From: a virus
Taxonomy: Duplodnaviria > Heunggongvirae > Uroviricota > Caudoviricetes
Reading direction: 5' to 3' (one strand)
IMG/VR virus record: IMGVR_UViG_2703718785_000025
DNA: 10,444 nucleotides
Shown: positions 1,308-8,984 of the stretch, piece by piece
Numbering within the stretch: position 1 is the first letter of the stretch
How the letters are laid out: each line of letters starts with the position of its first letter
Translations under genes and position numbers: made by a program
The notes under the pieces: generated by a model
The model's database searches: none
Told to the model about the DNA's origin: nothing
What the model saw: the letters and a program-made list of their open reading frames with translations, nothing else

Positions 1308-2749
1308 TCAAAAATCAGCCTGACTCGGGAGCAGTTTTTGCCAGATGGCTGAAACGTATTTCGCCTGGTAACGTGCATCGTTCAGAGCGTTATGGCGTTC
1401 ACCTTCGAATGGAATAGTCGTTCTTGCGTCGAAATCCATCACCAGTCCCAGAGCAACCATCGTTCTTACATCGCGATCATTGGTGTAACGCCACGGGCAG
1501 GGGATCCCCTGCCGTTCATATGAACGGCGTAAAATCACGTTGTCGAAAGTTGCACCGTTACCCCAGACCTGAACAAAAAATTCACCGGAGTTTTCGTCGA
1601 TAAATTCCCGTAATTGCAGCAGTGCATCATCTAACGGGATTTCATCGGTAAGAATGGCGGATTGCGCTTCGCGTGACTGTTTCAGCCACCACTTAATGGT
1701 GTCCCGATCAATGACTCCGCCAGCAGTTTCCAGATCGATAGTTTTGCTGAATTCTGGCCCCATCTCTCCGGTTTGCGGATCGAAAAATATTGCACCTATT
1801 GAGATAATCGGGGCATCAGGATTTTTTCCCATGGTTTCAAGGTCGATCATCAGATGAATCCCCGCTCTGCTGGTGGATGTGAGATTATGATGACCGTTCG
1901 CCTTAATTAAGGGATCTGACGCCTCGCCAGTTTCACTATCGCTGGCATGATGCTGATTGCCGCCAGTGTTCTCCTTGTGCTGATGCGCAGTGCCTTCCAT
2001 TTCCTCCGGATCATTTTCCTGAACTTCAGGCTGATTCTCTTCATCGAATATTTCCTGGTATGTTGCGTCACTTATCACCGCACCACAATCAGGGCAGCTA
2101 CCGCCGCCGGTCTGACCGCAGGCGGTGCAGGCTTTTTCCGGCTCCTGTTTCGTTTCTGGCTCGTTTTGTTGCGCATTTGGGCTGTTTTGTTCCGTTTTCT
2201 GGTCGTTCTGTTCCGATTCTTGCTGGTTCTGGTTCACAGAATCGCAGGTTTCAATCCCCTTCACCCATTTCGGATCATTCGGATCGCTAATCCCTTCAAC
2301 AAATTCACCACGTGATGCAGCAAGCAATTTATCGGCGTCAGGCTGGCTGATATTGGCTGCCTGCATAATTTTGTTTACTTCGTCAGCGGTAACTTTTACC
2401 GGCTCCGGTTGTACGGAATCTTCAGCGGTATCCACATTTTGCGGTAAGTCCGTGTATGTTCCGTTTTTGCGGGCAAGATATTCTTCTTTCGTGATTTCAG
2501 TAGCCCCGGCAGCCAGTGCCTTATCCAGACCAGAAAGTTTGTTTGCGCGACCGTATTTTTCGCCATCCTTGTCGGTGAAGAGGAAGTAGAACGGCCCCTC
2601 ACGCTCTACAGATGGTTCGACTTCCACTTTGCATTCGGTTTTTTCGTTGTCCGGAATTGCCGTTTCCACTGCATCAGTTTCTGGTACTGGCGACGAGAGA
2701 GTATCAGTTGCGCTCTGATTTGTTCCTTCATCTTCAAACACGCCCTTTG
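1308..2749 (-). CDS. Prophage exonuclease, C-terminal portion: Q/N/E-rich linker, CxxC-x9-CxxC zinc-ribbon motif and DEDDh (DnaQ-like) 3'-5' exonuclease domain; 5' end runs into the assembly gap
   Basis: Frame is open from the stop at 1308..1310 up to the first N at 2750. Exo motifs are visible in the translation: DLETMG (Exo I), WGNGATFDNVIL (Exo II), HNALNDARYQ (Exo III, H-x4-D). CTACGQTGGGSCPDCG gives the zinc-ribbon motif. The M at 2741 in the ORF track is a GTG and not the true start. Confidence 0.8.
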
Positions 2750-2850
2750 NNNNNNNNNNNNNNNNNNNNNNNNNNNNNNNNNNNNNNNNNNNNNNNNNNN
2801 NNNNNNNNNNNNNNNNNNNNNNNNNNNNNNNNNNNNNNNNNNNNNNNNNN
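2750..2850. other. Assembly or scaffold gap (101 N), true length unknown
   Basis: Uninterrupted run of n characters; coding frames on both sides are open into it. Confidence 0.97.
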
Positions 2851-3547
2851 TGATTTTTCCTGTTGAATTTTCAGTGTGCTGTTGATTGGCTCTGGCGCGG
2901 GCGAGATCAACAACAGACGTGTATTTTCCGGTTTCCTTGCGTTCACCTTCGCGACGTTTTTTCCAGATGCGCATCTCTGCCTGAATTTCGGGCCATTTGG
3001 CACCTGGCTTACATTTATGCTTAACCCACCCGATGGCATGCAGCTTAAGCTCCGGATACATGGCGTTAACTTCTGGCATTTTCATCAACGCTTCAACGAT
3101 ATGTCCGTCGAATGTTGCCATGTCTTCCTGCAACAGTTCCTGCGCGCTAATCACCATATCAACGGTGATGTTTTCACATGTGTCGAACTTAACCATGACA
3201 GCGTTCTGTACTTCAGGGGCCAGCTTGTCAAAAGTGACGTTTATCGGATCTGATTCAGTCTCAACCGGGACAAAGGAAGCAGACTCCTCATCCCAGCGGT
3301 TTTCCTGCATATATTCAGCATCCCAGGAATCGAGGGCAGGGCGGGGAATACCGGGTTTATCCTCGCAAACAAGAAATTTATAAGCGCAGTCCTGAGCAGC
3401 CGGATAATGTTCCAGGAATTGCCAGTGAAATTTTGCGCGGGCGCGACGTTCATCACCGGCTTCAATGGCAGTGGCTACAGCGACTGCACCTTCTTCCTTT
3501 ATTGCCTGTTCGTCCGGAATGGCGGCGCAAATAAAGACTTTACTCAT
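2851..3547 (-). CDS. Prophage exonuclease, N-terminal portion (probably the same gene as 1308..2749; proteins of this kind are often annotated exodeoxyribonuclease VIII-like)
   Basis: ATG at 3545..3547 with GAGGT about 8 nt upstream. 232 codons (MSKVFICAAIPDEQ...NSTGKI) are open to the gap edge. The apparent frame shift on the far side of the gap is expected if the gap length is arbitrary. Confidence 0.7.
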
Positions 3548-3826: not shown

Positions 3827-4015
3827 TTATTGACGTTCTCCGAAAATACCAAGTTCAAGAAGAGCAATTCGGGAAAGTATGGAATTATCATTGAGCAGAT
3901 AAGGCTCATATTTCCTCATATTAATGGCATCTTCAGTAAACTCCCGGTTACTGAGCAGAACACCAATATCAAAACAACCTTCAGACGTATTAACGTTTGG
4001 TAATAACGTTTCCAT
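3827..4015 (-). CDS. Hypothetical small protein (62 aa)
   Basis: Internal ATG at 4013..4015 of the 97-aa track ORF, with GAGGA 7 nt upstream. Product METLLPNVNTSEGCFDIGVLL...GIFGERQ. No family recognised. Confidence 0.45.
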   Translation of the reverse strand: METLLPNVNTSEGCFDIGVLLSNREFTEDAINMRKYEPYLLNDNSILSRIALLELGIFGERQ

Positions 4016-4032
4016 TATCGCGTCCTCAACAA

Positions 4033-4180
4033 TGAATTTTGTGATGCGGTGCCTGGTGCCTCCAGGTGACGTTAACCAGTTAACAATTAACGCCGGATAC
4101 AGAGAATCCACCCATAACACTGTTTTTGGTTTTAACTGTTCCGCGTGCGCTGAGCCGCATTCACCGCATCACAAAATTCA
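4033..4180. repeat. Perfect 19-bp inverted repeat flanking 110 bp
   Basis: TGAATTTTGTGATGCGGTG at 4033..4051 and its exact reverse complement CACCGCATCACAAAATTCA at 4162..4180. The left arm lies just upstream of the RBS of the 3827..4015 gene. The enclosed segment contains GTTAACCAGTTAAC (4071..4084). Confidence 0.7.
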
Positions 4181-4583
4181 CTTTAAAAAGGGCGGCAGAG
4201 CAGCCACGGAGTAAAACTGATACCGCCAAACGTCACCAGAAAATTGATAACAGAGGGCGTTGCAGCGGGGTTGTCACTTAAGCGTATGGTCAACCTGACA
4301 ACCCGGTGTCCTCAACTGGGGAAGGAATAACCCCGCCATACTTACCGCCGCGCCATTTCGCGGATTGCCACAACCGGAAGCGCACGGTCGACGAAAATTT
4401 AACGACAGGCTATCTATGAACCAGCTACCTCGCCGTGCGCTTTCGCGTTATGGTCTGACTTTTCAGGGAAATATCCTTTCAGTAAACTGTCAGTGCCGGA
4501 TGCTCACCCGTGTCCGGCGCACGCACTCCACCTCACCCGTGGAGAACTCCTTAATTACCAACCTTAGCTTCGTTGGTTAGCTA

Positions 4584-4802
4584 TTAACGCGGGTATGTAA
4601 TCATTCTGGCAATGCTTAATGCCGCTGCTTTTTCCAGATTGGTGATATCCTGCTCCAGAGCGGACAGATTTTCAGCCTGCTTAGCCCTGGCTTCATTGGC
4701 CCATTTCAGGTCCTGCGCTGCCTTAATTTTCTGGTGCATCCACTCATAAAGTTCATCATCGGTATAGTCTGGCGCGATGATGACGGGTTCTCGTTTCTGC
4801 AT
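4584..4802 (-). CDS. Hypothetical small protein (72 aa)
   Basis: ATG at 4800..4802 preceded by a strong AAGGAG 5 nt upstream. Product MQKREPVIIAPDYTDDELYEWMHQKIKAAQDLKWANEARAKQAENLSALEQDITNLEKAAA... No family recognised. Confidence 0.55.
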   Translation of the reverse strand: MQKREPVIIAPDYTDDELYEWMHQKIKAAQDLKWANEARAKQAENLSALEQDITNLEKAAALSIARMITYPR

Positions 4803-4894
4803 GTCGGCTCCTTGTGGTTAGCGCTGCCTGCTTTTAACCACGTCAGGCGAGGTGGTATCCTCTGAGGGGTCTGTTACTCGAGAGGAAATTGGTT

Positions 4895-5095
4895 ATGAAT
4901 ACAATCAAGTTTTCTTGCCCAGAATGTGGTGGCGAAGTCTTTGACACATCCTTTAAACCGCATGGCTCTGACAGTTTCGCGGGAGCCATCTGCAAAAATT
5001 GTGGTCACCTTGTAACTGAAGATGAGTCCTCGCAGTTTGATGACGAAATCGTTGACAATATCTTCGGTGCACTCACCAGAGACTTTCTGAAGTAA
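4895..5095 (+). CDS. Small zinc-ribbon protein (66 aa), CPEC...CKNC
   Basis: ATG at 4895 with GAGG in AGAGGAAA 7 to 8 nt upstream; the track start at 4889 is TTG. Two CxxC pairs (CPECGG and CKNCGH) spaced 21 residues apart, with an acidic C-terminal tail. Confidence 0.5.
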   Translation: MNTIKFSCPECGGEVFDTSFKPHGSDSFAGAICKNCGHLVTEDESSQFDDEIVDNIFGALTRDFLK

Positions 5096-5473
5096 AGGCG
5101 CATACCGCTTAGTTACCGCTCTGATAATTCTTACCTGTCCGGCAATGGCGCTGATATCAATATAAAGCGCCATCGCTGTTTCTTTGCTGATCCCTGGATG
5201 CCTTCCATTCTGATGTTTGACTTCGCCCACTGAGAAATCCTCTGTTTCCCCTTAACGCCGGGGTAGCGGAACAAAAAACCTGCTGCATAGTTAAACGTAA
5301 TCCCCGCCGTCATGTTCATACGCCTCAGGCTGGCTACTTAACCCCTGACCACTGCCGGGTAACTCGAAGTATTGCCCTGCGTTCTGTGGGGCGGGGTGGG
5401 TTTATGGATACAATTTACAAATTAAAATTTAACTGGTCAACATGTTTATTATTAAATTTGTAATTGCGGGCTG

Positions 5474-5502
5474 TTGCATCAGTCCCAAAATGGGACTACT
5501 AT
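5474..5502 (+). promoter_or_regulatory. Putative higBA promoter with operator-like inverted repeat
   Basis: -35-like TTGCAT (5474..5479), 17-bp spacer, -10-like TACTAT (5497..5502). The spacer holds a 7-bp inverted repeat AGTCCCA-aaa-TGGGACT (5481..5497). The predicted transcript start is within a few nt of the higB ATG at 5509 (little or no leader, no SD seen). Confidence 0.4.
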
Positions 5503-5508
5503 ACAGTT

Positions 5509-5811
5509 ATGAAGATTATCTCAGTTAAAACACTCAGGGATTTTTGGGCGGAGAATCCTGATGCAGAACAACCGCTAAGGGCATGGGTGGATGAGGCGGC
5601 AAAAGCTGACTGGAAAAGCCCAGCAGACATTAAGGCACAATACCGAACGGCCAGTATATTGAAAAACCGGCGCGTGGTATTCAACATAAAAGGTAATCAT
5701 TACCGTTTAATTGTTGCAATTGCGTATCAGCGAGGATGGGTATTTGTTAAATTCATCGGAAACCACAAGGAATACGATGCTATTGATGCTGATACCATCG
5801 AACTGGAGTAA
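5509..5811 (+). CDS. higB: Type II toxin, HigB family (RelE/ParE superfamily)
   Basis: 100-aa product MKIISVKTLRDFWAENP...FNIKGNHYRLIVAIAY...GNHKEYDAID, resembling E. coli HigB as recalled from memory. Toxin is upstream of antitoxin, the reversed order typical of HigBA. The track start at 5464 adds 15 residues with no support. Confidence 0.85.
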   Translation: MKIISVKTLRDFWAENPDAEQPLRAWVDEAAKADWKSPADIKAQYRTASILKNRRVVFNIKGNHYRLIVAIAYQRGWVFVKFIGNHKEYDAIDADTIELE

Positions 5812-5813
5812 GC

Positions 5814-6173
5814 ATGAACATCAAACCTATTCGTACAGAGCAAGATTATGAAGCCGCGTTGCGTGCTGTTGAACCCATGTTCGACAATGAGCCCGAAATT
5901 GACACGCCTGAGGGGGATTTTTTTGAGGTGATGTGTTTGCTAATAGAGGAATATGAAAAAAAACATTATCCCATTGAGCCACCATCCCCAATTGAAGCTA
6001 TAAGATTTCGCATGGAACAGCAGGGGCTGACTGTGAAAGATTTGGAACCCGCAATTGGGAAAAAAAATCGGGTTTATGAGGTGTTGAATGGTACCAGAAG
6101 CCTTACGTTACCAATGATTCGCCGTCTTCATAATCAATTTGGTATCCCCCTGGAAAGCCTGGTTGGATTATAA
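5814..6173 (+). CDS. higA: Type II antitoxin, HigA family (XRE-type HTH at the C-terminus)
   Basis: 119 aa; ATG is 2 nt after the higB stop with GGAG 5 nt upstream. C-terminal HTH region LTVKDLEPAIGKKNRVYEVLNGTRSLTLPMIRRLHNQFGIP resembles HigA. Confidence 0.85.
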   Translation: MNIKPIRTEQDYEAALRAVEPMFDNEPEIDTPEGDFFEVMCLLIEEYEKKHYPIEPPSPIEAIRFRMEQQGLTVKDLEPAIGKKNRVYEVLNGTRSLTLPMIRRLHNQFGIPLESLVGL

Positions 6174-6189
6174 AATCTGCTAGTCATTT

Positions 6190-6238
6190 GCCTGATGCTC
6201 GTTCCAGAAAAGGAATGCATCAGGCAGTTTTGTTTTTC
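6190..6238 (+). terminator. Putative rho-independent terminator after higA
   Basis: Stem GCCTGATGC (6190..6198) pairs with GCATCAGGC (6217..6225), followed by GTTTTGTTTTT. The stem overlaps the stop codon of the convergent repressor gene. Confidence 0.5.
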
Positions 6239-6612
6239 TGCCGCAGTAACTCTTCAAGTTTCCGTTTATAGAAATCGCGTTTTTGCTCCATATCACGAAT
6301 GATCTGCTCTGCGTCGCTTTGAGGTAACTCATCTAAAAGCGATATGATTTTTCGTTGTTGTTCTGTAAGTTGCGGTTGGTTGTCATTACTGGATACAGCC
6401 ATTTTATCGCCGAGAGTTTCTTCTTCCATAAAGAACCAATGGACGGGATGTTGTGAGAGCTCTGCTAATTTTTCCAGTTTATCCATTCTTGGCATCACGC
6501 CTTTCAACCAACCTTGCACGGATTGGGGTTTTACACCAAGACGTCTTCCCAGCTCTGACTGGTTTATATTCAATTCCTGCAACACCTGCTGAAGGCGTTT
6601 TACAAAGATCAT
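6220..6612 (-). CDS. Prophage repressor, HTH XRE/cI-type, RacR-like, with no S24 peptidase domain
   Basis: ATG at 6610..6612 with GAGGGG upstream; the track start at 6618 is GTG. 130 aa: MIFVKRLQQVLQELNINQSELGRRLGVKPQSVQGWLKG..., with a C-terminal charged, coiled-coil-like tail. Divergent from the Cro-like gene. Confidence 0.8.
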   Translation of the reverse strand: MIFVKRLQQVLQELNINQSELGRRLGVKPQSVQGWLKGVMPRMDKLEKLAELSQHPVHWFFMEEETLGDKMAVSSNDNQPQLTEQQRKIISLLDELPQSDAEQIIRDMEQKRDFYKRKLEELLRQKNKTA

Positions 6613-6667
6613 CACCACCCCTCGTAAACTAGTTCCGCGATCCTACAGAAAAAATTGATAAGTGGCA

Positions 6668-6706
6668 TTACAAATAGAAGTTGAAATTTAAATTTAAATT
6701 TGTAAT
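6668..6706. promoter_or_regulatory. Operator-like inverted repeat in the divergent repressor/Cro-like promoter region
   Basis: ATTACAAAT (6668..6676) and ATTTGTAAT (6698..6706) form a perfect 9-bp inverted repeat 21 bp apart. Three tandem AAATTT units lie between them (6685..6702). Rightward -35-like TTGAAA at 6681..6686 and -10-like AATTAT at 6704..6709. Confidence 0.5.
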
Positions 6707-6738
6707 TATCGGTGTCATCGTAAAGTTCGGAGGGAAAC

Positions 6739-6999
6739 ATGCAAAAAAGTACTCAAGTGAAAATCCTGTCAATAATGAGCCAATCAGAATTAGGGCGTCG
6801 TCTTGGTAAAACACCGCAAACCATAAGTGGGTGGTTTAAAAAACGAGTGCCAGCGGAGGAGGTTATACCAGCATGTGAGGCGCTTGACTGGGGAGTAACT
6901 CCGCATGAATTGCGCCCTGATAAATACCCTAATCCAACCGATGGTTTACCTGTTGAGTATCAGGCTAACGCACAAGCAGCGGCGGGAGTTGATTCATGA
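6739..6999 (+). CDS. Cro-like HTH protein (YdaS-like)
   Basis: 86 aa; GGAGGG 3 to 8 nt upstream of the ATG. HTH SQSELGRRLGKTPQTISGWFKK is nearly identical to the repressor recognition region. The ...PAEEVIPACEAL...ELRPD region recalls Rac YdaS. Stop overlaps the next start (ATGA). Confidence 0.8.
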   Translation: MQKSTQVKILSIMSQSELGRRLGKTPQTISGWFKKRVPAEEVIPACEALDWGVTPHELRPDKYPNPTDGLPVEYQANAQAAAGVDS

Positions 7000-7433
7000 A
7001 AATCAAGCATGAGCACATCCGCATGGCGATGAATGCGTGGCTGCTTTATCCGAGGGTAGGGCGCAAAAAAATCGCTGATGATATAGCGACAGCATATTTT
7101 GAGCTTGAAATGACTTATCCACCAATGCATGACACCTCTACGACAGAGGGTATTGGATTGAACATACAAAATATTTTTCGCTGGCTTGAAAAGGATACGC
7201 CTGATGCTGTTGAAAAAATTCAGGCACTAATTCCAGCTATCCTGACTGTTCTTCCGCGTGAACTGCGTTATCACCTCAGTATTTTTGACACTGTTGAGCG
7301 CCGTGCATTACTGGCGGCCCAGGAAGCGTTGAGCACGGCAATTGATGCGCATGATGATGCAGTCCAGGCAGTTTACCGGAAAGCGTATTTCAGCGACGGC
7401 GGGTCATCCGGCGAGTCTGTTGTGGTGCATTGA
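6996..7433 (+). CDS. ydaT: YdaT-like protein (Rac prophage YdaT family, CII-analog or toxin)
   Basis: 145 aa: MKIKHEHI...KIQALIPAILTVLPRELRYHLSIFDTVERRALLAAQEALSTAIDAHDDAVQAVYRKA... matches my recollection of E. coli YdaT. GGGAG 7 nt upstream of the ATG. Confidence 0.8.
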   Translation: MKIKHEHIRMAMNAWLLYPRVGRKKIADDIATAYFELEMTYPPMHDTSTTEGIGLNIQNIFRWLEKDTPDAVEKIQALIPAILTVLPRELRYHLSIFDTVERRALLAAQEALSTAIDAHDDAVQAVYRKAYFSDGGSSGESVVVH

Positions 7434-7519
7434 TATTTATGCCAGACCCCTGCTGATTCTGTTGATTGGGGAATCACAGAATATCACCAGAGGATGGTTC
7501 GTCACAAGATGAGGCAATT

Positions 7520-8530
7520 ATGGCCGCATTACCATACATGCAACTGTACATAGCTGATTACCTGGCTGACACCATGCATTTGTCCGCAGAGGAGCACGGT
7601 GCGTATTTGTTGCTGATGTTCAATTACTGGCAAACAGGGAAACCAATACCTAAAAACAGGCTGGCAAAAATTTCCCGTCTGACTAACGAGCGATGGGCTG
7701 ATGTGGAACCATCCTTGCGGGAGTTTTTTTGCGATAACAGCGATGAATGGGTGCATCTTCGGATTGAGGAAGATCTGGCATCAGTCAGGGAAAAATTGAC
7801 CAAAAAATCAGCCGCCGGAAAAGCATCTGTTCAGGCCAGAAGAAGCAGAAAGGAAGCATATGTTCAAACAAAACAAGAGAGAGATTTAACAGGTGTTCAA
7901 ACAAATGTTGGTGTTGTGTTTGAACATGACGCAAACACAAAAGCAACTAATAAAGATACAGATCTAAAAGAATTAAACCCCACACATAACGTGCGTGAAC
8001 GCGAGAGTATTCCGACCAGTGAGTCGCATGGTGCGCCGTTGCAGACAGCCGAACCTGAATACCTGGACGGCCTGAGCGAACCGATCGGGAAATTTTCGAT
8101 GACTACTGTCTGGCAGCCGTCGCCGGATTTTCGACAACGGGCAGCAGTGTGGGGTATGGCTCTGCCTGAGCCGGAATTTACACCTGCTGAGCTTGCCGCA
8201 TTCCGGGATTACTGGATGGCGGAGGGGAAGGTTTTCACGCAGGTTCAGTGGGAGCAGAAATTTGCCCGCCACGTGCAGCACGTCAGGGCACAGGTAAAAC
8301 CAGTCAGCAAGGGGGTAAGCCATGCAGCATCAGGTGGCACGGCATCACGGGCAGTTCAGGAAATCCGGGCAGCACGCGAACAGTGGGAACGTGAAAACGG
8401 ATTTATCAGCAACGGAAACGGCCTGGAAGCTGTGGGAGCTTATGGGGGAGGTGTATTCGAACCGCTGGACTCAGAAGAACGGGGCCGCACCTTCGAAGCT
8501 CTGGATTGCCCAGATTGGTGCGATGACTGA
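7520..8530 (+). CDS. Replication initiation protein, O-like: YdaU/DUF1376 N-terminal domain fused to a DnaT-like C-terminal domain
   Basis: ATG at 7520 with GAGG 5 nt upstream; the track start at 7466 is TTG. N-terminus MAALPYMQLYIADYLADTMHLSAEEHGAYLLLMFNYW fits DUF1376. C-terminal ...VWQPSPDFRQRAAVWGMALPEPEFTPAELAAFRDYWMAEGKVFTQVQWEQKFARH... resembles E. coli DnaT (recalled). Confidence 0.8.
   Translation: MAALPYMQLYIADYLADTMHLSAEEHGAYLLLMFNYWQTGKPIPKNRLAKISRLTNERWADVEPSLREFFCDNSDEWVHLRIEEDLASVREKLTKKSAAGKASVQARRSRKEAYVQTKQERDLTGVQTNVGVVFEHDANTKATNKDTDLKELNPTHNVRERESIPTSESHGAPLQTAEPEYLDGLSEPIGKFSMTTVWQPSPDFRQRAAVWGMALPEPEFTPAELAAFRDYWMAEGKVFTQVQWEQKFARHVQHVRAQVKPVSKGVSHAASGGTASRAVQEIRAAREQWERENGFISNGNGLEAVGAYGGGVFEPLDSEERGRTFEALDCPDWCDD
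7861..7926. repeat. Iteron-like repeats inside the O-like gene (candidate replication origin)
   Basis: TGTTCAAACAAA at 7861..7872 and 7894..7905, plus an inverted copy TGTTTGAACA at 7917..7926. An AT-rich stretch follows (about 7940..7980). Confidence 0.45.
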
Positions 8531-8984
8531 ACAGCAAATCCGTCTGGTCTGCCGTCAGTGCATGGACCGCTGCCGGGCGGGTGAAACGTGGCCCCCGGAC
8601 CTGGCTGAGTTTGTTGCGCTGATTTCGGAGAGTGGGGCAAATCCATTTGGTCTTACGGTGGATGCCGTGATGGAAGAGTACCGGCGCTGGCGCAATGAAT
8701 CCTGGCGATACGACGGGAGTGATAAATACCCGTGGCCACAGCCTGTGCTGTACCACATCTGCCTCGAAATGCGTACCAGAGGGATTGAGCGCCAGATGAC
8801 GCAGGGTGAGTTAAAACTACTTGCAGAACGGCAACTGACGAAATGGGCAAAGCATGTTGGTAACGGGATGAGTGTTCCGCCAGTGCGACGACAACTGGAA
8901 GGGGCGAAACACCCGCAAGGGCCAACGCCAATTGAGCGGCTGAAACAGGAATACGAACGCCGGAAGGCAGCTGGTTTTATTTGA
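8322..8984 (+). CDS. Replication protein P-like (helicase loader); start uncertain
   Basis: 220-aa frame with AGGGGG 6 nt upstream of the ATG at 8322. Segments align by eye to lambda P (ETWPPDLAEFVAL, YPWPQPVLYHICLEMR and TQGELKLLAERQ against PFLPSPGQFVAWC, YPWKSNAHYWLVTNLYQNMR and TDAELRRKAADE). With this start it overlaps the O-like gene by 209 nt out of frame. Alternative in-frame starts are at 8442 and 8523. Confidence 0.65.
   Translation: MQHQVARHHGQFRKSGQHANSGNVKTDLSATETAWKLWELMGEVYSNRWTQKNGAAPSKLWIAQIGAMTEQQIRLVCRQCMDRCRAGETWPPDLAEFVALISESGANPFGLTVDAVMEEYRRWRNESWRYDGSDKYPWPQPVLYHICLEMRTRGIERQMTQGELKLLAERQLTKWAKHVGNGMSVPPVRRQLEGAKHPQGPTPIERLKQEYERRKAAGFI

Follow-up and report, generated by a model that had tools for sequence, protein, structure and literature searches.

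Introduction

Short prophage repressors without an Ala-Gly cleavage site or a Ser/Lys dyad were described for the Gifsy prophages in 2011, where they stay intact during induction (PMC3121763). The Gifsy repressors GfoR, GtgR and GfhR are inactivated by the small LexA-controlled antirepressors GfoA, GftA and GfhA, and DicA and RacR were already grouped with these repressors, with homologues in most Escherichia coli genomes (PMC3121763). Here we analysed a stretch of 10,444 nt (the window, in its whole length) from the Caudoviricetes record IMGVR_UViG_2703718785_000025 of IMG/VR, in which positions 6220-7433 hold a repressor gene, a cro-like gene of the YdaS family and a ydaT-like gene. Results showed that this locus very probably governs lysis and lysogeny in a lambda-like prophage of pathogenic E. 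coli, as a CI/Cro/CII-type immunity switch of the class known from Gifsy, Rac, Qin and CP-933P.

Two further members of the class have been studied at their operators. At the CP-933P locus, which is bistable, the repressor PaaR2 forms octamers and is reported to be insensitive to mitomycin C, the footprints of PaaR2 and YdaS overlap, and the promoters PL933P and the YdaT-activated PRE933P have been described (PMC8630535). YdaT of CP-933P was footprinted on the YdaT operator (PMC9986795). YdaT of Rac was footprinted on its own box, where it activates a reverse promoter and raises racR expression (PMC11879457). YdaS and YdaT are regarded as functional analogues of Cro and CII (PMC5917428, PMC8630535, PMC9986795, PMC11879457).

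Results

Gene order and distribution of the immunity region

The list of open reading frames (ORFs) gave three ORFs in 6220-7433, a leftward repressor gene followed by rightward cro-like and ydaT-like genes, at the positions where the initial annotation had placed an immunity module. The reading as an immunity module follows from gene order, Pfam families and homologous loci, all of which agree. The wider window comprises the left arm, the immunity region and the replication region of a lambdoid prophage. On the left side the order is integrase, DUF4224 protein (at an xis-like position), RecE-like exonuclease, DUF1482 protein, dicB, DicF small RNA, ydfC, a zinc-ribbon gene and higBA; on the right side the repressor gene is followed by cro, ydaT and genes for a DUF1376/DnaT replication protein, a lambda-P-like protein, DUF1627 and DUF977. 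From int to the lambda-P-like protein, this order agrees with that of Sp12/CP-933P, Rac and Qin.

The 2.1 kb surrounding the three genes was 100% identical in prophages of E. coli O26, O103 and related strains. Of 5,426 complete E. coli genomes, at least 136 carry the immunity type (at least 80% of the 2.1 kb), among them those of O26 and O103 enterohaemorrhagic E. coli (EHEC). Relatives were also recovered from Salmonella, Sodalis, Arsenophonus and Serratia.

The repressor has no S24 autopeptidase

The repressor, the CI analogue, is encoded at 6220-6612 on the minus strand (130 aa; RefSeq CDS WP_000578360.1). Its ORF spans 6220-6618, and the likely start is the ATG at 6612, which is also the RefSeq start and is preceded by a Shine-Dalgarno sequence, GAGGG, at 6619-6623. 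HTH_3, a helix-turn-helix (HTH) family, was the sole Pfam family assigned to the protein (E = 6.6e-9). Peptidase_S24 (PF00717) was not matched by the repressor at E ≤ 0.1, and it was absent among the 25 most-matched Pfam families listed for 16 repressor homologues (E ≤ 1). A motif search of the repressor sequence found neither an Ala-Gly nor a Cys-Gly dipeptide. All 77 database homologues (77/77) were about 125-154 aa long or fragments, so none is long enough for a fused S24 domain.

The AlphaFold model of the repressor was all-alpha (mean predicted local distance difference test score 78). Residues 1-61 form a five-helix HTH and residues 62-83 a disordered linker, and two further helices occupy 84-95 and 98-129. 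Foldseek against the PDB matched HTH domains only, among them those of P22 C2, 434 repressor and Cro, SinR, DdrO and C proteins, and returned no S24 fold. A cryptic S24 domain was thus sought with Pfam on the protein and its 16 homologues, the motif search, structure prediction and the fold search, and none was found. The repressor lacks an S24 autopeptidase, as the initial annotation had held; the S24 search that it proposed gave no S24 domain, no Ala-Gly site and no beta-rich fold that could carry a Ser/Lys dyad. Since the sequence holds no such domain, RecA-stimulated self-cleavage would be unavailable to the repressor, and induction would not be expected to take that route. The Gifsy repressors, intact during induction (PMC3121763), and the reported insensitivity of PaaR2 to mitomycin C (PMC8630535) speak for this.

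The C-terminal part had also been described as a charged tail. It is indeed 42% charged, but it is a conserved domain of two helices rather than a mere tail. This helix-turn-long-helix module (84-129) carries the motif LTxxQxxxxxLLdeLPxS(D/E), which is common to DicA, PaaR2, the CI protein of phage Tritos and GtgR of Gifsy-2. Pfam holds no domain for the module. The DicA subfamily model (NCBIfam NF007257) aligned with the repressor end to end (5-131/132 against 6-132/135) and scored 50.1 bits, far below its cut-off of 101.

The linker between the HTH and the C-terminal helices comprises some 20 residues, variable in sequence and of low confidence in the model. A rival reading is that a separate protease inactivates the repressor, either an ImmA/IrrE-type M78 enzyme, as for DdrO and ICEBs1 ImmR, or host Lon or Clp acting on this linker. 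DdrO was among the HTH proteins of similar layout recovered by Foldseek. In a Salmonella locus (L005), the gene for a 72%-identical repressor has some 1.8 kb away from it a gene (6156-7256) for a 366-aa protein with an HTH and a Peptidase_M78 domain. However, this M78 gene is parted from the repressor gene by other genes, encodes an HTH of its own and may belong elsewhere, and no gene for M78 or another protease was found in the window or in the 20-kb region around an identical locus. The homologous Gifsy repressors, moreover, are stable during induction (PMC3121763). Inactivation by a separate protease is therefore very unlikely, and we continue to read the protein as a CI-type repressor of an immunity switch that is not cleaved.

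Cro shares the recognition segment of the repressor

The Cro analogue (6739-6999, plus strand; 86 aa) is encoded divergently from the repressor gene and upstream of ydaT. It belongs to the YdaS family, passing the Pfam model YdaS_toxin (PF15943) with 34.6 bits against a gathering cut-off of 30 and matching PHROG 35 (E = 5.5e-25); against the PDB it matched Xfaso1 Cro (3bd1, E = 0.0046). The initial annotation had quoted nearly identical recognition segments for repressor and Cro. Both 22-residue segments were found in the translations, with 14 of 22 residues identical, and BLASTP of repressor against Cro gave 15/26 identities (E = 1.5e-9). Helices 2 and 3 of the Cro HTH nearly match those of the repressor.

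This likeness was kept in the loci of Salmonella, Sodalis and Arsenophonus. With 35-38 bits, Cro matched its own repressor family better than RacR, DicA and PaaR2 (14-26 bits), and by these scores the likeness is enriched between partners. In their DNA the two segments share only 50/78 positions, with many synonymous differences, and no long inverted repeat joins the two HTH segments. A recent gene conversion between them was excluded by this DNA identity together with the absent inverted repeat. The likeness is apparently a matter of old paralogy or of selection.

The N-terminal domain of the 434 repressor and 434 Cro have closely similar HTHs and compete for common operators. Competition of this kind had been proposed for the present pair, and it would fit the likeness of helices 2 and 3, the conserved operator repeats described below and the overlapping footprints in CP-933P (PMC8630535).

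YdaT and its predicted binding site

The ydaT gene (6996-7433, plus strand) overlaps the cro stop and encodes a protein of 145 aa, the functional analogue of CII. It passed the Pfam model YdaT_toxin (PF06254) with 42.1 bits against a cut-off of 21 and matched PHROG 163, "CII-like transcriptional activator" (E = 5e-37), as well as the PDB entries 8bt1 (E = 5e-29) and 3c4r (E = 2e-30). The DNA-binding part (residues 1-82) was 65% identical to YdaT of CP-933P and 47% to that of Rac, whereas the C-terminal tetramerisation helix (residues 83-145) was 82.5% identical to Rac and 34.5% to CP-933P. YdaT is thus a mosaic, which suggests a recombination joint near residue 82.

A perfect inverted repeat, TTGATT-N6-AATCAA, lies across the cro stop and the ydaT start at 6989-7006, and this is the single exact match within the whole window. 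We refer to it as the YdaT-box (OM). The block around it is identical to the footprinted site of CP-933P and differs by one base from that of Rac. By analogy with these two sites, the box is predicted to be an activator site for a leftward PRE-type promoter that would establish repressor synthesis. The Cro proteins of the window, CP-933P and phage Tritos all end in GVDS, which corresponds to the left arm of the YdaT-box.

The Pfam names YdaS_toxin and YdaT_toxin recall the reading first proposed for RacR-YdaST, that of an atypical toxin-repressor or toxin-antitoxin (TA) system in which YdaS and YdaT are dedicated toxins and the repressor mainly silences them. The initial annotation likewise stated that YdaS and YdaT of Rac are toxic when derepressed. 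In part this holds, since racR is essential and its silencing derepresses ydaST and kills K-12 (PMC5700377, PMC5700373), and expression of Rac YdaT leads to filamentation and death through rcsA (PMC11879457, PMC11014345). The toxin framing itself is dated. In the window the two genes occupy the exact cro and cII positions, with the replication genes next to them. YdaT is a DNA-binding tetramer with a defined operator (PMC9986795), of which a perfect copy stands at the PRE position here. YdaT of CP-933P is not toxic, and there YdaS and YdaT regulate PR, PRM, PL and PRE (PMC8630535); the TA view has been explicitly rebutted (PMC5917428). Loss of the repressor is expected to be harmful, with DicB, DicF, YdaT and in-situ replication released together, so no TA pair is needed to explain the harm. 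We consider a dedicated toxin system extremely unlikely at this locus and read YdaS and YdaT as the Cro and CII analogues of the immunity switch.

Operators and candidate promoters

An 18-mer with the consensus TTAAATTTWAATYTGTAA has exact copies at 6688-6705 on the plus strand and at 5415-5432 on the minus strand. The first of these, the OR operator TTAAATTTAAATTTGTAA, covers the spacer and the -10 of a PR candidate promoter at 6681-6709 (plus strand; TTGAAA, 17 nt, AATTAT, with TG before the -10), predicted by a consensus scan. A second OR site at 6667-6686 (ATTACAAAT ... TTGAAA), supported by an inverted repeat and the alignment of four taxa, is inverted relative to the 18-mer and lies over the -35 of PR. 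The OL copy (TTAAATTTTAATTTGTAA on the minus strand) lies in the same way over the spacer and the -10 of a PL candidate promoter at 5412-5440 (minus strand; TTGACC, 17 nt, TAAATT), again a prediction of the consensus scan. The 14-mer TTAAATTTGTAATT at 6694-6707 in the repressor-cro intergenic region recurs at 5452-5465 on the plus strand, where it forms the second OL site, inverted relative to 5415-5432. At both OR and OL, a second inverted copy (ATTACAAAT) stands upstream of the exact 18-mer. The PR candidate is predicted to drive cro, ydaT and the replication genes, and the PL candidate points to ydfC-dicF-dicB-exonuclease-xis-int.

At the loci of Salmonella, Sodalis and Arsenophonus, which encode repressors of 52-72% identity, the core of the intergenic region with the OR 18-mer is kept and the flanking sequence is not. 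The -35 and -10 of the PR candidate were kept in the alignment of the four taxa. In the Sodalis locus, the stretch aligned to the second OR site holds two TTGCAA hexamers about one helical turn apart. Copies of the 18-mer also lie immediately downstream of the repressor genes of Sodalis and Arsenophonus, where OL and PL are expected. The layout downstream of the Sodalis repressor gene is that of the PL candidate, with an upstream inverted site, a TTGAC -35 and an operator over the -10. As a control for the OL assignment, we searched for k-mers common to OR and another site. In CP-933P this control led back to PL933P, as published, and in Rac and Qin it found the sites expected downstream of racR and dicA.

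A PRM candidate is placed with low confidence at 6642-6637. Its -10, TAGGAT (6637-6642, minus strand), was derived from a conserved block, and a poor -35 adjoins the operator arm at 6667-6675. The block reads ATACAA in Arsenophonus and CTACAG in the other three taxa, giving the minus-strand readings TAGGAT, TAGTAT, TAGAAT and TATGCT. The promoter scan did not pick up this candidate. Two half-site patterns for the operator, TTNCAA-N7-TTGNAA and TTAMA-N8-TKTAA, were tried; each failed to fit all copies, and the conserved 18-mer was kept.

HigBA and the left operon

A higB-higA pair lies between the repressor gene and OL/PL at 5509-6173 on the plus strand (higB 5509-5811, higA 5814-6173; Pfam, RefSeq). 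Pfam assigned HigB_toxin (E = 6.6e-33) to the first product and HTH_3 (E = 4.3e-6) to the HigA product, and the toxin gene comes first, as in HigBA systems. The pair is on the strand opposite to the repressor, and a promoter-like region of its own contains the palindrome GTCCCA-AAA-TGGGAC. In Sodalis and Arsenophonus OL directly follows the repressor gene, whereas in the window higBA is inserted between the two. The slot between repressor and PL holds rexAB in lambda, paaA2-parE2 in CP-933P and higBA here, and a Salmonella relative carries an orphan PaaA2-like gene in it, the first 45 residues of which are 76% identical to PaaA2. Capture of TA modules at the repressor-OL slot looks recurrent.

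A strong hairpin, the likely terminator of higBA, spans 6188-6237 on the plus strand (-23.5 kcal/mol, ViennaRNA) and is followed by the T run of GTTTTGTTTTT. The 3' arm of the hairpin, like the T run, reaches into the last codons and the stop of the convergent repressor gene. The terminator scan missed this hairpin, which the loop limit of the scan may explain.

In the left operon, the DicF small RNA gene (4190-4241, minus strand) matched Rfam RF00039 with 75 bits against a gathering score of 48, and dicB, which encodes a cell-division inhibitor (3827-4015, minus strand), matched Pfam DicB over its full length (E = 6.4e-37) in agreement with the RefSeq annotation. DicF and a full-length dicB stand in the left operon as in Qin, and the repressor would therefore be functionally DicA-like toward the cell-division inhibitors. 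A zinc-ribbon protein of the ECs_2282 family (66 aa, CxxC...CxxC) is encoded at 4895-5095 on the plus strand, antisense to the predicted PL transcript; a gene of this family is found at the same place in Sp12/CP-933P.

Elsewhere in the window, 101 N at 2750-2850 break the RecE-like exonuclease gene into two ORFs (1308-2741 and 2606-3547). The N run is a masked or unassembled stretch and no biological feature. The replication protein at 7466-8530 is a fusion of a DUF1376 domain (YdaU-like) and a DnaT DNA-binding domain; RefSeq places its start at ATG 7520, whereas the ORF finder used TTG 7466.

Search for an inducing input

No LexA box was found at a plausible site in the window at one mismatch or fewer. 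The one one-mismatch match in the window lies inside the lambda-P-like gene (8743-8758) and is no better than chance. No LexA box was found in sequence L011 either. By tblastn, homologues of GftA (presumed, STM1020.1n) and DinI were absent from the window and from the identical 64-kb prophage of strain E2865. A DNA search for Gifsy-2 dinI-gftA across all complete E. coli genomes matched nothing but DinI genes; these lay in 54 genomes, and not one of the 54 is listed as a carrier of this prophage. Outside the window, the E2865 prophage (L001) carries an exact CTGT-N8-ACAG match with a GC-rich centre, CTGTTGACGACAACAG, at 17949-17964, between a parD antitoxin gene and a 90-aa ORF that is followed by a DUF968 gene in the nin region. 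The 90-aa ORF is unrelated to DinI or GftA, and instead of a LexA box, CTGTTGACGACAACAG may represent an operator of ParD.

In E2865 and in O26 RM10386, tail genes L and K flank a P22 immI-like arc/mnt/ant module, with two Arc-family genes and Ant (WP_001432327.1 in E2865). In the sequences of these O26-type hosts it occupies 24134-25729 (L011) and 3991-5586 (L012), and it is absent in L013. O103 RM8385 lacks the module and has an identical immunity region, and P22-like Ant was for this reason rejected as a generally obligatory inducer. A gene for a Bro-N antirepressor-like protein, WP_001056882.1, is present in the lysis cassette of the prophage.

Three routes to induction are left: antirepression could act in cis in some hosts, it could come in trans from other prophages, or the switch could be bistable and flip stochastically. 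A more specific proposal is that the repressor acts as a receiver for trans-acting antirepressors, such as the P22-like Ant of O26 or those of co-resident Shiga toxin (Stx) and other lambdoid prophages, with HigBA anchoring the immunity region against loss or swap. We hold this to be rather unlikely; if true, the locus would be one node in a prophage-to-prophage induction network of pathogenic E. coli.

Discussion

How the switch would work

In the model that best accommodates these data, the repressor HTH would bind AT-rich operators of 18-19 bp at PR (6667-6705) and at a PL-like promoter (5412-5465), overlapping both promoters. This would silence cro, ydaT and the replication genes rightward and ydfC-dicF-dicB-exonuclease-xis-int leftward. 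The C-terminal helices would probably mediate oligomerisation, as suggested by the octamers of PaaR2, and possibly cooperation between OR and OL. Cro would bind the same operators through its near-identical helices 2 and 3 and turn repressor synthesis off. During establishment, YdaT would bind its box at the cro/ydaT junction and activate the leftward promoter from which repressor is made. Induction would most likely need an antirepressor, encoded elsewhere in the prophage or by a co-resident prophage, or stochastic bistable switching. Toxicity upon derepression would come from the whole programme of DicB, DicF, YdaT and in-situ replication and not from a dedicated toxin pair.

Several points weigh against a working switch of this kind. 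The promoters are consensus matches, and the scan found 6 of them over 4700-7500, where 5.7 are expected by chance. The PRM candidate was placed by inference, neither of the two half-site patterns tried fits all operator copies, and that the switch works at this locus is argued from homology. No inducer was found, the window being free of a LexA box and the identical E2865 prophage of a GftA or DinI homologue, and the P22-like Ant module of two O26-type hosts is absent from the O103 host with the same immunity region. The E2865 prophage is also defective, with its integrase split by an IS3 element and its portal gene frameshifted, so that in some hosts the switch may serve as a silencer only.

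The decay of the E2865 prophage and the lack of an SOS-linked input, as seen in the LexA-box scan of the window and the tblastn search of the E2865 prophage, would suit a stronger version of this view. The switch would then be uninducible, a frozen silencer in a decaying prophage like DicA in Qin, capable at most of bistable flipping as in CP-933P, where PaaR2 is reported as unresponsive to mitomycin C (PMC8630535). Against it, the integrase ORF of the window is intact (339 aa) and the replication genes are complete, as are the repressor, Cro, YdaT, the operators and the YdaT-box. The conservation of repressor and operator core across genera argues for selection on a working switch, and free phages such as Tritos have switches of the same layout. 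We regard a frozen silencer as possible but on balance doubtful. It concerns the state of the prophage and does not conflict with the mechanism of the immunity switch, which remains our preferred reading.

The operator TTAAATTTWAATYTGTAA, the candidate promoters and the YdaT-box provide a map for testing immunity specificity and cross-talk among the lambdoid prophages of EHEC. The analysis also corrects the "toxin" labels that annotation pipelines still put on YdaS and YdaT. HigBA is a second, unrelated TA pair at the repressor-PL slot, which fits the idea that TA modules stabilise immunity regions. The current understanding of such switches is unchanged. Non-cleavable repressors of the class have been known since 2011 (PMC3121763), and experiments on this type of switch exist for Gifsy, Rac, Qin and CP-933P, so the present example is real but ordinary.

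Comparison with known systems

By its features the repressor falls into the GfoR/GtgR/DicA/RacR group, being a short HTH repressor, a GtgR homologue, in the cI position and divergent from cro. Gifsy-2 gave the nearest repressor, with 32% identity to GtgR over 106 aa (E = 1.6e-17), and a Cro that is 44% identical over 72 aa (E = 3.6e-24). The repressor here has 130 aa against 136-138 aa in Gifsy, with the N-terminal HTH and the C-terminal LLxLFxxLPE motif in common. At the CII position, Gifsy-2 has a P22 C1-like protein where the window has YdaT, and the two systems also differ in operator specificity. A LexA-controlled antirepressor cassette of the dinI-gftA type was not found in the identical prophage.

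RacR-like, the term of the initial annotation, is apt for the class and for the YdaS and YdaT families but less so for the repressor itself. RacR (158 aa) is 23% identical over 129 aa (E = 4e-5), too distant for a close relative, and its C-terminal module has an insertion of about 20 residues. With Rac the locus shares the divergent repressor and YdaS-YdaT genes followed by a DUF1376 replication protein, a YdaT that is 58% identical overall, a Cro that is 42% identical to YdaS over 50 aa, and a YdaT-box one base different. The left operon of Rac carries kilR, whereas that of the window carries dicF and dicB. In the latter respect the locus resembles Qin, which has a repressed left operon with ydfC, dicF and dicB, and DicA agrees with the repressor in size and architecture. 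The repressor is only 22% identical to DicA, however, and the YdaS-type Cro has no similarity to DicC.

The overall prophage layout is that of CP-933P/Sp12, where the ECs_2282-like zinc-ribbon gene, ydfC, dicB and the exonuclease all recur. In both loci the repressor is short, lacks S24 and has a C-terminal module of related type, a TA module separates the repressor gene from PL, and YdaT is 47% identical overall (65% in the DNA-binding part), with an identical YdaT-box block. The HTH of the repressor and Cro, on the other hand, are unrelated in specificity to their CP-933P counterparts; the HTH does not align with that of PaaR2, and Cro is 23% identical (E = 0.03). PaaR2 was rejected as a close homologue, as just the C-terminal 56 residues align (E = 1e-4), and a PDB sequence search with the repressor returned no PaaR2 chain. 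The repressor gene here has a Shine-Dalgarno leader, whereas PaaR2 is leaderless; HigBA lies on the opposite strand with its own promoter, whereas paaA2-parE2 is co-transcribed with the repressor; and the operators are of the form TTAAATTT here and GTTTAGTAA repeats there.

Outside these prophages, the Cro and repressor domains of phage 434 were among the best fold matches of the repressor model (Foldseek), but the 434 repressor has an S24 C-terminal domain, is RecA-cleavable and has no close sequence relation. Phage Tritos was rejected as a carrier of the same immunity; its layout is alike, but its repressor is 33% identical and its Cro unrelated. Every element of the locus thus has a described counterpart, namely short non-cleavable repressors, a Cro that shares the recognition segment, YdaT with its box, and a TA module by PL. 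Particular to this locus are an immunity specificity that is so far uncharacterised and uses an operator of its own, the mosaic build of YdaT, and HigBA as the occupant of the PaaA2-ParE2 slot.

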